Positions 6,020 through 51,439 of a stretch of 64,000 nt of DNA are shown piece after piece. Each line of letters opens with the position of its first letter. Position 1 is the first letter of the stretch. Made by a program: the position numbers and the translations under genes. The notes beneath the pieces are model-generated. The model did not search any database, was not told the origin of the DNA, and saw nothing but the letters and a program-made list of their open reading frames with translations. Source of the DNA: Armatimonadota bacterium (GTDB lineage Bacteria; Armatimonadota; UBA5829; DTLH01); NCBI GenBank assembly GCA_038207085.1, contig JBBRAE010000005.1, positions 20,181-84,180 of the forward strand, read 5' to 3'.

Positions 6020-6195
6020 GGCACTGCACGTAGGGGCGGACCAGTGTGCCCGCCCTCCCCCGGCGACGGTGAATATGTCACCGATAGCCCCCAAAGCCGG
6101 CAATGGTCCGCAGTCGGATTGAGATAACCCACTGGTGACATATTGATCTCAGCGATCAAGGGCGCACACATTGGTGCGCCCCTACGTAGTTGGCC
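6020..6195. repeat. About 175-bp element with nested inverted repeats (possible degenerate REPIN/MITE or structured RNA)
   Basis: Outer arms: GGCACTGCACGTAGGGGCGGACCAGTGTGCCCGCCC (6020-6055) pairs with the reverse complement of GGGCGCACACATTGGTGCGCCCCTACGTAGTTGGCC (6159-6195). Inner arms: GAATATGTCACC (6070-6082) pairs with GGTGACATATTG (6133-6145). Confidence 0.5.
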
Positions 6196-9349: not shown

Positions 9350-10918
9350 ATGGTTATGAGAAGGATACCGGTCTTGTTTGCAGCTCTTTTGGTACTTGCC
9401 GCTGCAGCGTACGCCCAGGAGCCCGCGCTTCCGGGGGCGGTGATTCGCATTGTAAACGCCGTCGAGTTCACCGGCAACACAGTAGTGCCGACGGGCGAGC
9501 TTGAAAGCGCTGCGGGGATAAAAAGCGGCGAACTGCTCACTACCGCTGAGCTTCGGCGCGCGATCACCAACATCGAACAAGCCTACCGCAAGCACGGATA
9601 TATGGCGGTCATAACAGAAGACGTAGTCGCACACCTCGAAGACACCGGGACGCTCCTTTTCCCGATCACAGAGGTCAGGGTAAACGAGGTAAAGATCACT
9701 GGCCTAAAGAAAACCCGCGATTTTGTCATCCGCCGGATGCTTGAGCTCGAACCGGGGGAACTCTACTACATCCCCGCGCTCAGGCGCGACGCGGACCGGA
9801 TATTTGCGCTCAATATTTTCGAATCGGTCGACGCCGACATCGAGCCCTCCGACGACCCCGGCAAAGTGGACGTCATCTGGAAGCTGAAAGAGCAGGAAAA
9901 GACGGGCCGCATCGAGTTTGGAGGAAGCTACGCGCCTAGCGAACGGCTGGTCGGTGACATTACCTACGTGCAGACGAACCTCCGAGGCCGCGCGGAACAA
10001 CTCGGGCTCTCGGCAAGTATCGGAAGCATCAACGGACGCCTTAGCGGTGAGTTCTTCTACACCAACCCCTGGATCGCCCAAGACCAGTCGCTCACGCTGC
10101 GCGTGTTCAGCCGCGTGCGCTACAAGTTCTCCGGGGACCTCGTCCCGAATTTCGACCGATACTTTGAGCGCGCTCGGGGAGGACAGGTGCTCACCACCAA
10201 GAACCTGTCGGCTGTGCGGCGCGTCACCTACAGCGCGCGCTACGAGGGTGTGAACGTCAACAACCTCCCATTCGAGGACTTCACTATCCCAACCACATCT
10301 CCCAGCGCAAACGTGACAGCCCTCGCTGGCTCGTACATTGTGGACCGGCGTGACTCGACCACGTTTCCGTCGACCGGCTGGTGGCTGCGCAGCAACTTCG
10401 AACCCGCTTACGCCAACCCCGAGGACGGCGGAAGCAACTTTACCTTCAAAGCCTATGGCACCTTCCAGAAGTTCTATCCGCTGGATCCCGTATCGACCAA
10501 GGGCGCTGCGCCCCCTACTCATCGGCCAAGGGTAATTGCGACCAGGTTAGGACTCGGCGTATCGGCGGGCGACCTGCCGTTCTTCGAGCAGTTCTTCGTC
10601 GGAGGCGTGCGGGGAATCAGGGGCTACACGGAGTCGCGGTTTTGGGGGGACGACACGTTTTTGGCCTCCGTTGAGTACCGCCAACCGTTTGGAGCCAAGC
10701 TCACGGGCCTTGCGTTTATCGATGTCGGCGACGCCTGGGGAAGCCGCTTCCAGTTCGAGCCGGGAACCCAGACCGATTTCGACCAGCACGATCACTTCTC
10801 ACCAAGAGTAGGCGTGGGGTTCGGAGCGAGATACGTGACGCAGCTCGGGTTCCTTGGGCTCGACGTGGCCTGGGGCGAGGGGACCAACACCTATCTCGTG
10901 CTTGGGGACACTTTCTGA
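9350..10918 (+). CDS. bamA: Outer membrane protein assembly factor BamA (Omp85 family, short form)
   Basis: Signal peptide MRRIPVLFAALLVLAAAAYAQ. POTRA-like repeats. C-terminal bacterial-surface-antigen barrel (FFVGGVRGIRGY..., ...VAWGEGTNTYLVLGDTF with terminal Phe). Confidence 0.8.
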   Translation: MVMRRIPVLFAALLVLAAAAYAQEPALPGAVIRIVNAVEFTGNTVVPTGELESAAGIKSGELLTTAELRRAITNIEQAYRKHGYMAVITEDVVAHLEDTGTLLFPITEVRVNEVKITGLKKTRDFVIRRMLELEPGELYYIPALRRDADRIFALNIFESVDADIEPSDDPGKVDVIWKLKEQEKTGRIEFGGSYAPSERLVGDITYVQTNLRGRAEQLGLSASIGSINGRLSGEFFYTNPWIAQDQSLTLRVFSRVRYKFSGDLVPNFDRYFERARGGQVLTTKNLSAVRRVTYSARYEGVNVNNLPFEDFTIPTTSPSANVTALAGSYIVDRRDSTTFPSTGWWLRSNFEPAYANPEDGGSNFTFKAYGTFQKFYPLDPVSTKGAAPPTHRPRVIATRLGLGVSAGDLPFFEQFFVGGVRGIRGYTESRFWGDDTFLASVEYRQPFGAKLTGLAFIDVGDAWGSRFQFEPGTQTDFDQHDHFSPRVGVGFGARYVTQLGFLGLDVAWGEGTNTYLVLGDTF

Positions 10919-39240: not shown

Positions 39241-40227
39241 TCACTTTTCCGTATTAGGCTCCGCTGCGCGAAGTTCCGCCGCTTTTTCCTCGGCCAGCGT
39301 ATCGTTGATATACGCGCCCGCGCCGGACTCGCTTCCAGCCAAGTACTTCAGCTTCTGCGGAGTCCTGTACGGCGGGTAAAACTCGATATGGAAATGATAA
39401 AAACCACTGTAGTCCATGCCGTCGGTCGGCGTCTGGTGCAGCACCATCATGTAAGGAAGCGACATATCCCAGAGGTTGTCATACTTGCTCAGCATGGTCT
39501 TCAGGATGCTCGCAAGATCGTCCTTTTCTTTCTCTGTAAACTCAGGGAGCGAGCCCTTGTGAGCCTGCGAGAAGATGTGCACCTCATAGGGGTAGCGCGC
39601 GTAAAAAGGAATCGCCGCAAAAAACGACTCGTTCTCAACTACAACGCGCCGACCGTCCCTTTTCTCTTCGGCGACGATGTCGCAGACCACGCAGCGGCCG
39701 GTCTCTTTGAAATGCGCCTCAGCCCCATCGAGCTCGCGCTTGATGTGCGGCGGGACGAACGGATAAGCATAGATCTGGCCGTGCGGATGGTCGATCGTTA
39801 CGCCAATCTCTTTTCCCTTGTTCTCGAAGATGAAAACATAGTCGACGTAATCTTTCTGCCCGAGCTCGACAAAGCGATCGGTCCAGACCTCGATCAGTTT
39901 GCGGATATCCTGCTCGCTCTCACCGGCAAGGGAGCCATCGTGCCTGGACGAGTAGAGCACTACCTCGCAGACGCCGTCGGCGGGCCTTACTTTGTAGAGG
40001 TCGCTGCCCTCGACCGACATCTCCGGCGCGGGGTGCTGAAGCGACGGGAACTTGTTCTCAAAGACGACGACCTCGTAGTCCTCGCTTGGAATCTCCGTCG
40101 GAAACGCCCCGGGTTTGGTCGGGCAGAGCGGACAGTAGTCTTTGGGAGGCAGGAAGGTGCGGTCCTGCCGATGCGTAGCCGTAATCACCCACTCGCGCAG
40201 CAGTGGATGCCATCTAAGTTCGGACAT
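39241..40227 (-). CDS. galT: Galactose-1-phosphate uridylyltransferase (HIT-family, UDP-glucose:hexose-1-P)
   Basis: MSELRWHPLLREWVI...CPLCP...; HPHGQIYAYPFVPP (the HxHxQ HIT motif). Confidence 0.85.
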   Translation of the reverse strand: MSELRWHPLLREWVITATHRQDRTFLPPKDYCPLCPTKPGAFPTEIPSEDYEVVVFENKFPSLQHPAPEMSVEGSDLYKVRPADGVCEVVLYSSRHDGSLAGESEQDIRKLIEVWTDRFVELGQKDYVDYVFIFENKGKEIGVTIDHPHGQIYAYPFVPPHIKRELDGAEAHFKETGRCVVCDIVAEEKRDGRRVVVENESFFAAIPFYARYPYEVHIFSQAHKGSLPEFTEKEKDDLASILKTMLSKYDNLWDMSLPYMMVLHQTPTDGMDYSGFYHFHIEFYPPYRTPQKLKYLAGSESGAGAYINDTLAEEKAAELRAAEPNTEK

Positions 40228-40329
40228 TTACTTCTTGTCTCCGTTCTTGCCGTCATCGCTCTTGCCAAACGTGAAATAGATGAGTGTTCTCCCCCCGGAG
40301 ATCTCAATAACTTCCTTTTTCATATCCAT
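40228..40329 (-). CDS. Unlisted 33-codon small ORF (MDMKKEVIEISGGRTLIYFTFGKSDDGKNGDKK) translationally coupled to galT (TAA-ATG junction)
   Basis: Manual reverse-complement translation. GGGAGGAAAT RBS 9-12 nt upstream of the ATG. The stop TAA abuts the galT ATG. A sigma70 promoter and leader hairpin lie upstream. Confidence 0.35.
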   Translation of the reverse strand: MDMKKEVIEISGGRTLIYFTFGKSDDGKNGDKK

Positions 40330-40432
40330 CTCTGGCTATTTCCTCCCGTGACTATAAGCACAGCCGACACCAAAAACGGCGGTCCGGTAGGTCCGCCGCA
40401 GAGTCTTCAAAACAAATGCCTGTGCCAATTGT

Positions 40433-40462
40433 ATTTTAGGCCCTTCATGCCTCATTCGTCAA
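40433..40462 (-). promoter_or_regulatory. Sigma70-type promoter for the sORF-galT-rSAM-galK operon, followed by a terminator-like leader hairpin (40377-40398)
   Basis: Minus strand reads TTGACG-(18 nt)-TAAAAT. The leader contains CGGCGGacctaccggaCCGCCG then UUUUU before the sORF RBS. Confidence 0.45.
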
Positions 40463-40920
40463 TACGAACGCCTGTAGATCCAGGGCTAACGCATCTTGAC
40501 CGGCAACCAACGTAGTGCCCGTCCCGCCGCCGCGGCCTCTCGCATCACTTTCGATGATGCTGTCGGTGAGACCATCGGCGCGGAACGTGCCGAGCAAACG
40601 ATAGAATTTCATAAAGTTTTCCATTTGGCACAGCACCTTTGATACTGATGGCCTATCGCATTCCCTATCGGGAACGCTGTCGGCGAGGCGGGCGCGGCGA
40701 CCCGCCACTACGGGCGTTCGGCGCTGCCCGACAGCTAAGATACGTTCGCCCTGGTCTGTGGATAACATAGCTCTGCTATAAGTGGGGGATGTTGGGTATA
40801 ATGAATGTAACTTAGTGATAGCCGGCACAGATCGCAACGCTCGTCGAGAAAGAGGCTATTGTGCCTGAGTCCTTGCGTCTGATATCATTGTAGTTGAGGG
40901 GATCAGTTAGGAGGAAATGC

Positions 40921-41913
40921 ATGAGCAACTCTATGAACCGTCGCGATTTTCTGAAGATCACGGGAGCAGTCAGCATCGGGGCGGCAGCCCTTTCCATAGG
41001 CGGCGCGTCCGCTCTGACCAAACCCGTCGAGAAGAGATCGACCAAACTACCGCAGAGAGTCCTCGGGCGCACCGGCGAGAGCGTGAGCATTATCGGGATA
41101 GGCGGCGTAGGGATGATCGTCGAGGCCGAAGAGGAAGACGTTGTGTCGATGCTGAACGAGGCAATCGACATCGGAATCACCTACTTGGACACCTCCCCTA
41201 TTTACGGCAAGGAGCGCTTGAGCGAGCACAGGCTCGGCCTTGTCCTGGCAAAGCGTCGGAGCGAAGTCTTTCTTGCAGGGAAGTGCGAAGCGCGCAACTA
41301 CGACGGCATCATGAAAGACGTCGAGGAAAGCCTGAAAGAGCTTCAGACCGACCACTTCGACCTCCTCCAGCTCCACTACTGGCCGAACCGCAACGCCTGG
41401 AACGTCGACCCCTGGAATGTGCTCGGCGGGCCCAAGGGCGTAATGGCCGCGTTTGCCAAGCTCAAAGAGCAGGGCGTCATCAAATACTGCGGGCTGACCG
41501 GACACCCAATCGATAAGTTCGCGATGCGCGACGACATGCGCCGGGCAATCTCACGCTACGACTTTGACACAGTGCTCTGCTTCGTCAACCCCAAGCAGGA
41601 GAGCCTGTGGGTTACCCGCGAGCTGATCCCCGTCGCGCGCCGCAAGAATATGGGCGTCATCGGAATGAAGATGTTCGGCGGCGGCACACCGGGCGCGCTT
41701 GTCGGCAAGAAACCCGGACAGACCAGCGCGAAAGAGCTCTTCCGCTACGCGCTCAGCCAGCCGATACACGTCTCTATCCCCGCTGTGACGAGCATCGATC
41801 AGTTGAGGACAAACGTCGAGTGGGTCAAGGCCTTCAAGCCGATGACCGCAGAGGAGTCCAAGACCCTGATCGCTCAGGTAAACGTCCCTGGCGGCGCCAA
41901 ACAGATGATTTAG
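40921..41913 (+). CDS. Aldo/keto reductase with twin-arginine (TAT) signal peptide
   Basis: MSNSMNRRDFLKITGAVSIGAAALSIGGASA (TAT signal: RRDFLK followed by AxA). AKR fold (..GIGGVG.., ..IDTSPIYG.., LHYWP). AGGAGG sits 8 nt upstream of the ATG at 40921. An extended -10 TGgGTATAAT lies at 40794-40802. Confidence 0.8.
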   Translation: MSNSMNRRDFLKITGAVSIGAAALSIGGASALTKPVEKRSTKLPQRVLGRTGESVSIIGIGGVGMIVEAEEEDVVSMLNEAIDIGITYLDTSPIYGKERLSEHRLGLVLAKRRSEVFLAGKCEARNYDGIMKDVEESLKELQTDHFDLLQLHYWPNRNAWNVDPWNVLGGPKGVMAAFAKLKEQGVIKYCGLTGHPIDKFAMRDDMRRAISRYDFDTVLCFVNPKQESLWVTRELIPVARRKNMGVIGMKMFGGGTPGALVGKKPGQTSAKELFRYALSQPIHVSIPAVTSIDQLRTNVEWVKAFKPMTAEESKTLIAQVNVPGGAKQMI

Positions 41914-50614: not shown

Positions 50615-50642
50615 ACCATTTATTCGTTGCTCAGTTCACCGA

Positions 50643-51439
50643 CAAACTCACGTAGTGGCCGGTCGCCGTGCCGGCCATCAGCACCAAAGGCGCTGCGCCA
50701 ACTGTGTAATCTCATATACATGATCATTTGTACGACGCGTCTCGCGTCGATGGCCAGCCAGCGACCGGCCACTACATCAACTGCACCTATAACGGCAGAA
50801 TATCGGGCATACCGGAGTACGGCCACAAATCCGCAGTCTCCGCCAATCCTCCCCTTATCGGATTCTCCAGAATGTACTGGCAAATTGCAATTGTATCCTC
50901 ATCCCTACGCGCTATGTGATCGTACCAACTCCGCTGCCACAACTGACCTTCACCTTCGTGCTTTCGATAGATCATAGTCGTAAAGCTCTTGAATTGGCCA
51001 ATGACACTACCTACAGACGCTTGTTCCTCTGTGGGCGACAGCGCCAGATGCAAGTGATCAGGCATCAGACAATACGCATACAGCCGAATGATCCCCTTGT
51101 CACGCCTCCACAACAGAGCATCAACAACATCGCGAGCCAGCAAGGGATCTTCAAAAACCCGCTGTTTGTCGGTCGTGCACATGGTTGCAAAATAGACCAT
51201 GTTAGGGTCAGAATAGCTAACATCCTCAAGTCGCATCCGTTTGCGAAGATAGCATCGCTCTCGAGTTTCGCTCATACACAATCCCCAACAAACGCCATAT
51301 CGCCACAAACTCACGTAGTGGCCGGTCGCCGTGCCGGCCATCAGCGCCAAAGGCGCTGCGCCAACTGTGTAATCTCATATACGTGATCATTTGTACGACG
51401 CGTCCCGCGTCGATGGCCGGCCAGCGACCGGCCACTACA
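50643..51439 (-). mobile_element. REP-associated tyrosine transposase (RAYT) gene flanked by two near-identical REPIN copies (50643-50775 and 51306-51439)
   Basis: The two 130-bp flanks differ at about 4 positions. Each flank is an inverted doublet: GTAGTGGCCGGTCGCCGTGCCGGCCATC ... GATGGCC(A/G)GCCAGCGACCGGCCACTAC. Confidence 0.75.
50787..51275 (-). CDS. REP-associated tyrosine transposase (IS200/IS605-like HuH Y1 transposase, RAYT class)
   Basis: Start at MSETRERCYLRKR (ATG 51273-51275). HuH motif LYAYCLMPDHLHLAL. Downstream ..QRSWYDHI.. tyrosine region. Track ORFs over the flanks (50430..50723, 50620..50883, 51226..51489) are repeat read-throughs. Confidence 0.75.
   Translation of the reverse strand: MSETRERCYLRKRMRLEDVSYSDPNMVYFATMCTTDKQRVFEDPLLARDVVDALLWRRDKGIIRLYAYCLMPDHLHLALSPTEEQASVGSVIGQFKSFTTMIYRKHEGEGQLWQRSWYDHIARRDEDTIAICQYILENPIRGGLAETADLWPYSGMPDILPL

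Follow-up and report, generated by a model that had tools for sequence, protein, structure and literature searches.

The REPIN is said to have been described by Bertels and Rainey in 2011. Its hallmark is a dispersed multi-copy population in the genome, with flanking 16-mers that are over-represented genome-wide, and a genome typically has a single gene for the REP-associated tyrosine transposase (RAYT) for each REP family. To our knowledge, almost all characterised REPIN/RAYT systems are from Proteobacteria, and a literature search found no paper linking them with Armatimonadota.

By definition, a REP is a GC hairpin or palindrome with GTAG (GT[AG]G) at its foot (PMC6006769, PMC8266576), and class-2 (TnpA_REP) proteins are recognised by the motif Y-x3-NP (PMC6006769). 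The mechanism of single-strand REP cleavage and rejoining has been established for the enzymes of E. coli, Stenotrophomonas, and Marinomonas (PMC8266576). Three REP types (y, z1, and z2) occur at many genome loci in E. coli (PMC8266576).

The E. coli K-12 REPtron (tnpA_REP/yafM with BIMEs; Bertels group 2, Quentin subclass 2.2) is composed, like the locus described here, of a single HuH-Y1 gene between inverted REP pairs. Both have GC-hairpin REPs with a GTAG foot and share the DHLH and Y-x3-NP motifs, and the E. coli protein (PDB code 4ER8) was the best PDB match. However, the identity to E. coli TnpA_REP was only ~20%, and the WE and YIHYNP motifs of group 2 corresponded to WQ and YILENP in the present protein. 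The REP stems were perfect here, whereas the E. coli enzyme needs an AA/GC bulge (PMC8266576). In contrast to the many REP loci of E. coli, the window (the whole 64-kb stretch of DNA that was analysed) suggests a small family.

Group 3 (subclass 2.5; Pseudomonas, Stenotrophomonas, and Marinomonas) matched the present protein in the combination of DH[LF]H with WQ and in a length of ~150–160 aa. The REPs of this group are short and perfectly palindromic directly after GTAG, as here (PMC8266576), and also flank the RAYT as REPIN doublets. The loop motif CGCYGT of the present locus parallels the loop-specific recognition by group 3 enzymes, and the copies in Marinomonas cluster near the RAYT, as they did here (PMC8266576). 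The tyrosine motif was YILENP here and is YI[VI]ANP in group 3, the assignment being compared by motif and not by tree. The host was an Armatimonadota-like MAG, whereas the group 3 hosts are gammaproteobacteria, and the REPIN was long (125 nt plus a leader), with a second small hairpin after each REP.

The transposases of the IS200/IS605 family (IS608 and ISDra2) have in common with the present system the HuH-Y1 fold, the recognition of single-strand hairpins, and a guide-like tetranucleotide located 5' of the hairpin. In contrast to this family, the protein failed the IS200 model and carried Y-x3-NP instead of Y-ENQ, and the locus was without tnpB. The flanking elements were complete inverted doublets, which were also found without a gene. 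The locus is very probably an ordinary REPtron, in which a domesticated RAYT is flanked by its cognate REPINs.

Organization of the locus

The RAYT gene was located in a relA-dtd-RAYT-TPR gene string, in which all genes were on one strand (Table 1). The right REPIN was upstream of the RAYT start at a distance of 29 nt, and the left REPIN was downstream of the stop at a distance of 10 nt. Both were extragenic, one on each side of the RAYT in the interval from dtd to the TPR gene. An earlier note on this DNA had described two near-identical elements of 130 bp bracketing a RAYT of about 163 aa that started with MSETRERC. The bracketing, the near-identity, and the start of the protein were confirmed, and the lengths were revised to 135 nt for each element and 162 aa for the protein.

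Table 1. Features in the window and RAYT loci of relatives. Positions are those of the window; scores in bits are those of the REP covariance model.
Feature	Position or contig	Strand	Description
Sibling-family REPIN	6020-6195	+	Between convergent ORFs; REP arms 38.8 and 34.0 bits
Third, decayed REPIN	40569-40718	-	Same family as the flanking copies; between ORFs 39388-40515 and 40894-41913
Left REPIN	50642-50776	+	Built and oriented like the right copy; REP units 46.6 and 39.2 bits
RAYT / TnpA_REP gene	50787-51275	-	162 aa; begins MSETRERC, contains LYAYCLMPDHLHLAL
Deposited protein P0001	50787-51350	-	184 aa; start ATG inside the right REPIN
Right REPIN	51305-51439	+	All stems perfect; REP units 47.4 and 40.0 bits
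RAYT P0005	L033		Five tandem REPs and one inverted REP upstream; four REPs downstream; separate REPIN 9.4 kb away
RAYT P0003	L034		One inverted REP pair
RAYT P0009	L035/L036		GTAGGGGC-type REPs, like the 6-kb element of the window
RAYT P0002	L042		Upstream REP followed by a second hairpin; inverted downstream REP
RAYT P0004	L043		Upstream REPs followed by a second hairpin; inverted downstream REP

The deposited form of the protein is probably over-extended, with the true start at the ATG at 51275, because its N-terminal extension was not conserved in the aligned homologues, which support the shorter reading frame. The start of the deposited 184-aa RAYT within a REPIN is of practical consequence for annotation. 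A promoter/terminator scan found no sigma-70-like promoter upstream of the RAYT, and its expression therefore probably relies on read-through from the same-strand relA-dtd genes.

The 64-kb window contained one RAYT gene, and the identical-protein cluster of P0001 was recorded on one contig only. The GC content of the RAYT gene was 50.1% and its GC3 54.6%, compared with a GC3 of 62–75% in the four neighbouring genes, and this base composition suggests that the gene is of foreign origin or weakly adapted in codon usage. When the REPIN and the rest of the 64-kb window were searched against Rfam with gathering and E-value thresholds, no RNA family matched. No tRNA, rRNA, or riboswitch was among the matches of the gathering-threshold search of the whole window.

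Family, motifs, and fold of the RAYT protein

The RAYT passed the NCBIfam equivalog NF047646 (REP_Tyr_transpos) with 103.2 bits at a curated cutoff of 80 and failed the IS200 equivalog NF033573 with 20.7 bits at a cutoff of 55. The score for Pfam Y1_Tnp was 37.6 bits. The HuH motif was composed of D73-H74-L75-H76 (DHLH), followed by W113-Q114 and the tyrosine motif Y134-I-L-E-N138-P139. Residues H74, H76, W113, Q114, Y134, N138, and P139 were invariant in 15 of 15 aligned sequences, which comprised the 162-aa ORF, its 184-aa form P0001, and 13 homologues. The ORF was full length and kept all 29 invariant columns of the alignment. By motif comparison only, the set DHLH/WQ/YILENP came closest to two subclasses, 2.5 (Bertels group 3) and 2.2 (group 2), and was exact to neither.

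When the PDB was searched with the RAYT sequence, E. coli TnpA_REP (4ER8) was the sole match. The AlphaFold model of the RAYT had a pLDDT of 81.5 and a pTM of 0.78. When the model was compared with the PDB by Foldseek, 4ER8 was again the top match, with an E-value of 9e-9 and a TM score of 0.66, which represented a TnpA_REP-like fold. The ISDra2, IS200, and IS608 transposases shared the HuH-Y1 fold with the model and ranked below 4ER8 (ranks 2–30). The proposal that the gene encodes a HuH tyrosine transposase of the RAYT type was thus borne out by the NF047646 score, the invariant HuH and Y-x3-NP residues, and the agreement of sequence and fold searches on 4ER8. The earlier note had also allowed for a protein of a different family lacking the catalytic tyrosine; Y134 was retained within the Y-x3-NP motif, and the RAYT model was passed.

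Structure of the flanking REPINs

The two flanking REPINs formed a direct repeat of 135 nt and were 97% identical, with four mismatches at element positions 42, 79, 101, and 115. This identity suggests recent copying or homogenisation. Each copy opened with a 10-nt leader, ACAAACTCAC, outside the inverted repeat, and the remaining part was 125 nt. The 15-nt terminal inverted arms, GTAGTGGCCGGTCGC and GCGACCGGCCACTAC, were 100% complementary and 94 nt apart.

The right REPIN started with the leader, a REP unit, and hairpin A; beyond an AT-rich centre, hairpin B and then the inverted REP unit followed. The REP unit of the flanking REPINs consisted of GTAG and TGGCCGG-tcgccgtg-CCGGCCA, followed by TC and a second small hairpin. 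Hairpin A (CAGCGCC-AAA-GGCGCTG) adjoined the left arm, and hairpin B (GACGCG-TCC-CGCGTC) adjoined the right arm. Two of the four differences in the left REPIN broke stems, one in hairpin A and the other in the inverted REP (CCAGCC for CCGGCC). The REP units had a GTAG foot and a GC stem of 6–8 bp, in keeping with the REP definition, for which a perfect or imperfect palindrome of 20–40 nt was applied.

As single-stranded DNA, each flanking REPIN folded into one long hairpin. The folding energy was -48.2 kcal/mol (z = -8.5) for the right copy and -39.6 kcal/mol (z = -6.7) for the left copy, and none of 200 shuffles was as stable in either case. The z values of the single-strand folds ranged from -6.7 to -9.5. 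With two inverted GTAG-hairpin REPs, complementary arms, and one long single-strand hairpin, the inverted-doublet REPIN architecture proposed from the sequence was upheld.

Other REPINs in the window

The third, decayed copy of the family was intergenic and located ~10 kb from the RAYT. Its gapped local alignment score was 82.5, compared with a mean of 25 and a maximum of 44 in shuffles, and nhmmer aligned it over HMM positions 4–115 with an E-value of 1.5e-12. The left REP was intact, scoring 33.2 bits with the covariance model, and carried a compensatory stem change (GGCGGG/CCCGCC); 37 nt were inserted after this REP. Hairpin A and the centre could be recognised, and the right arm was eroded. 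A weak REP-like match at 40508-40546 on the plus strand (E ~0.65) might correspond to the right arm of this copy after displacement.

The sibling-family REPIN contained inverted GTAG-hairpin units, with arms of GTAG GGGCGG...CCGCCC and inverted GTAG GGGCGCAC...GTGCGCCC, which are written out as GTAGGGGCGG... and GTAGGGGCGCAC.... Its single-strand fold had an energy of -46.4 kcal/mol (z = -5.5). No cognate RAYT for this element was found in the 64-kb window. Its arms resembled the REPs that flank P0009, a RAYT with 59% identity, in L035.

The earlier note had pointed to the CACGTAG(G/T)GGC core at 6020-6195 and suggested a divergent or older REPIN. The element and its core were both present, and it was a related REPIN, judging by the resemblance to the L035 REPs and by arm scores of 34–39 bits in a model whose own training set included them. 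The note had further raised the case of a flanking repeat that occurs at the RAYT only. The decayed copy and the REPs at other loci in relatives indicate that the flanking repeat was not purely a local duplication.

REPs and RAYTs in relatives

The RAYT homologues in Armatimonadota and Chloroflexota MAGs are already labelled REP-associated tyrosine transposases by the NCBI pipeline. Genomic contexts were fetched for five close homologues (P0002, P0003, P0004, P0005, and P0009; 58–62% identity), and REPs of the same type closely flanked each of the five on both sides. Every RAYT homologue examined was located in a different genomic neighbourhood. REP singlets with the same core were also found away from any RAYT, two on L031 and one on L027.

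A total of 24 REP units was gathered from the window and relatives with a GTAG[TG]GGC seed and a hairpin requirement. Over these units, compensatory substitutions preserved the stem: 97% of the stem cells were paired, a value that none of 500 shuffles reached, and four of seven pairs were changed on both sides. The selection by seed and hairpin partly accounts for the invariant GTAG and the high proportion of pairing, and leaves the double substitutions unaffected. The loop motif CGCYGT recurred on different stems among the 24 units.

Two of these contigs showed further arrangements. In L033 (a 5.37-Mb genome; ENA ERZ25039554 contig_4527), five head-to-tail REPs with an exact 38-nt period were located at 9757-9946, directly upstream of the RAYT. 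They formed a BIME-like tandem array, whereas the REPs of the window were organised as doublets. In L031 (JGI Ga0315289_10015301), the REP singlets at 1459-1483 and 2313-2337 were in direct orientation and had ~20 nt of 5' flank in common. They bracketed a DUF433/DUF5615 toxin-antitoxin-like gene pair, and the cassette may be captured or mobilised between REPs.

Size of the REPIN family

The 15-nt arm core occurred exactly four times in the window. With up to three mismatches there were eight matches, compared with a shuffle mean of 2.6, and 1 of 100 shuffles reached eight. When the covariance model built from the 24 REP units was run on the window without filters, only seven units were recovered (33–47 bits), all of them from its training set. 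Apart from the decayed copy and the sister REPIN, the 63 kb around the REPtron gave no further REPs, and the next best match had 13.7 bits and an E-value of ~0.1. Since the model recovered only the seven known units, no larger population is hidden in the window, which contained in total three copies at two loci and one sister-family REPIN.

For a population of at least 300 copies spread evenly over a genome of 3–5 Mb, the probability that 63 kb would hold no more than one extra copy was ~0.01–0.11. The low REP density in the window therefore speaks against several hundred copies, and the REPIN family of the host genome is probably small, with a few tens of copies at most, as extrapolated from the density in 64 kb only.

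Pattern and probe searches of sequence collections were also carried out. Probes made by translating the REPIN in two stop-free frames gave no credible spurious ORFs over other copies in protein databases; P0121 and P0122 gave weak multi-stretch matches (E ~1e-4). In the genome-contig collection, none of the loci had the local set of four matches seen in the window, and the 13 matches to the REP pattern each stood alone in coding-like contexts that recurred among GC-rich genomes, and were not regarded as REPs. The pattern scan of metagenome contigs gave 18 loci, with true REPs only at L027 and L031. Matches to the REP core at L002-L026, L028-L030, and L032, from unrelated GC-rich genomes, were in conserved coding-like contexts, such as cgcgcGTAGTGGCCGGTCGCGAGCCGGCCggcgcc, and were assigned to chance or coding sequence. 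These coding-context matches are a warning for REP counts made by pattern alone. The Logan contig L001, which ended inside the right REPIN, was rejected as a sign of more copies, as the two local copies suffice for the break.

Site history at relA-dtd

By its RelA homologues, the window groups with MAGs of Armatimonadota. The relA-dtd pair was conserved in relatives, and the sequence after dtd varied. In the relative with a RelA of 91% identity (L037), a different ORF followed dtd and the contig ended shortly beyond; with a RelA of 85% identity (L038), a DUF4279 gene was located at the RAYT position. In L040 and L041 (RelA 75% identical), the dtd-TPR spacer was 290 nt and contained one REP singlet of the same family, followed by the TPR gene, without a RAYT. 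The RAYT was thus absent from this site in relatives with a RelA of 75–91% identity. The L040 singlet was considered as a positional homologue of a REP arm of the window and was rejected, as only the REP core was in common.

The absence at this site, together with the low GC and GC3 of the RAYT gene, suggests that the REPtron was inserted into a variable spacer, possibly fairly recently or by horizontal acquisition. The same two features fit a recent arrival or a still-moving gene rather than long vertical domestication.

Contigs L040 and L041 (ENA k141_1381317 and k141_4858662) came from two samples and were otherwise identical, with a 101-nt indel at ~17425-17525 of L040. The indel carried a GTAGGGGCGAAGCATTCGCCC inverted-doublet unit, of which two tandem diverged units were present in L040 and one in L041. 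This could represent the gain or loss of a REP unit or an assembly collapse.

Proposed mechanism and alternative explanations

By analogy with the characterised enzymes, TnpA_REP would be a single-domain HuH/Y1 nuclease-ligase that binds single-stranded REPs and recognises the GTAG foot, the GC hairpin, and the loop. Cleavage beside the REP would proceed through a 5'-phosphotyrosine intermediate at Y134, with the metal bound by H74 and H76. The strands would then be rejoined, and the non-autonomous REPIN doublet would be excised or copied to new intergenic sites. The RAYT gene itself would not be multiplied, and the flanking REPINs are the best-preserved copies of the family. We infer the catalysis, the cleavage sites, and any current activity of the RAYT from the same analogy.

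The locus might instead be an autonomous, still-mobile unit of the IS200/IS605 type, in which the whole REP-RAYT-REP block transposes with the REP hairpins as its ends and no domestication has occurred. Such a unit would agree with the tight bracketing of the gene by repeats at distances of 10 nt and 29 nt, with the single inverted REP pairs around the RAYTs of L034, L042, and L043, which resemble terminal hairpins, and with the atypical GC and GC3. The dtd-TPR spacer of close relatives was also without the block, and each homologue examined was at a different neighbourhood. However, the protein passed the RAYT equivalog and failed that of IS200, its tyrosine motif YILENP is of the class-2 type (Y-x3-NP) and not the Y[IV]ENQ of IS200, and no tnpB was present. 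The single RAYT in 64 kb and the identical-protein cluster on one contig also stand against such a unit, and the flanks were complete, near-identical doublets rather than distinct left and right ends. REPINs or REPs without a gene were found at 40.6 kb and 6.0 kb of the window and in L031, L027, L033, and L040, which is a signature of non-autonomous elements mobilised in trans. We therefore consider an autonomous unit improbable.

A local duplication or gene conversion around a decaying transposase relic, with no active mobilisation and with hairpins of structural or regulatory function as terminators or mRNA stabilisers, was likewise judged improbable. The only intact copies were the two at the RAYT, the third was heavily decayed, and no probe used gave further copies. 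The same-strand gene string places the hairpins within a likely transcript, and REPs affect termination and mRNA stability (PMC6006769). These observations are set against a full-length RAYT ORF that kept 29 of 29 invariant columns, a 97% identity of the flanking copies that suggests recent copying or homogenisation, and the dispersed position of the third copy. The same REP family was present at unrelated loci in relatives, including the bracketing of an unrelated gene pair in L031. Moreover, a regulatory role is compatible with mobilisation, as both are true of classical REPs, and the ordinary REPtron with a domesticated RAYT was retained as the preferred reading.

A further proposal concerns the clade of RAYTs in Armatimonadota and Chloroflexota (DHLH/WQ/YILENP, ~160 aa), which might represent a distinct, undescribed subgroup. 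Its REPs would be of a two-hairpin type, with a GTAG hairpin and conserved CGCYGT loop followed by a hairpin with a 3–4-nt loop. The RAYT would often be located within a single inverted REP pair, with atypical GC and at a new locus in each genome. Members of such a subgroup would be intermediates that are still moving or horizontally exchanged together with their REPs, and would maintain very small REPIN populations. This proposal is tentative and was considered rather unlikely.

As an ordinary REPtron, the locus leaves the understanding of the REPIN/RAYT system unchanged, and the small family and the two-hairpin REP units are minor curiosities. In this deep-branching and uncultured lineage, the locus and its relatives follow the GTAG-hairpin logic known elsewhere, and their REP stems co-vary. 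The REPIN family, which is seemingly small and located near the RAYT, provides a modest data point on how REPtrons are established and spread between phyla.
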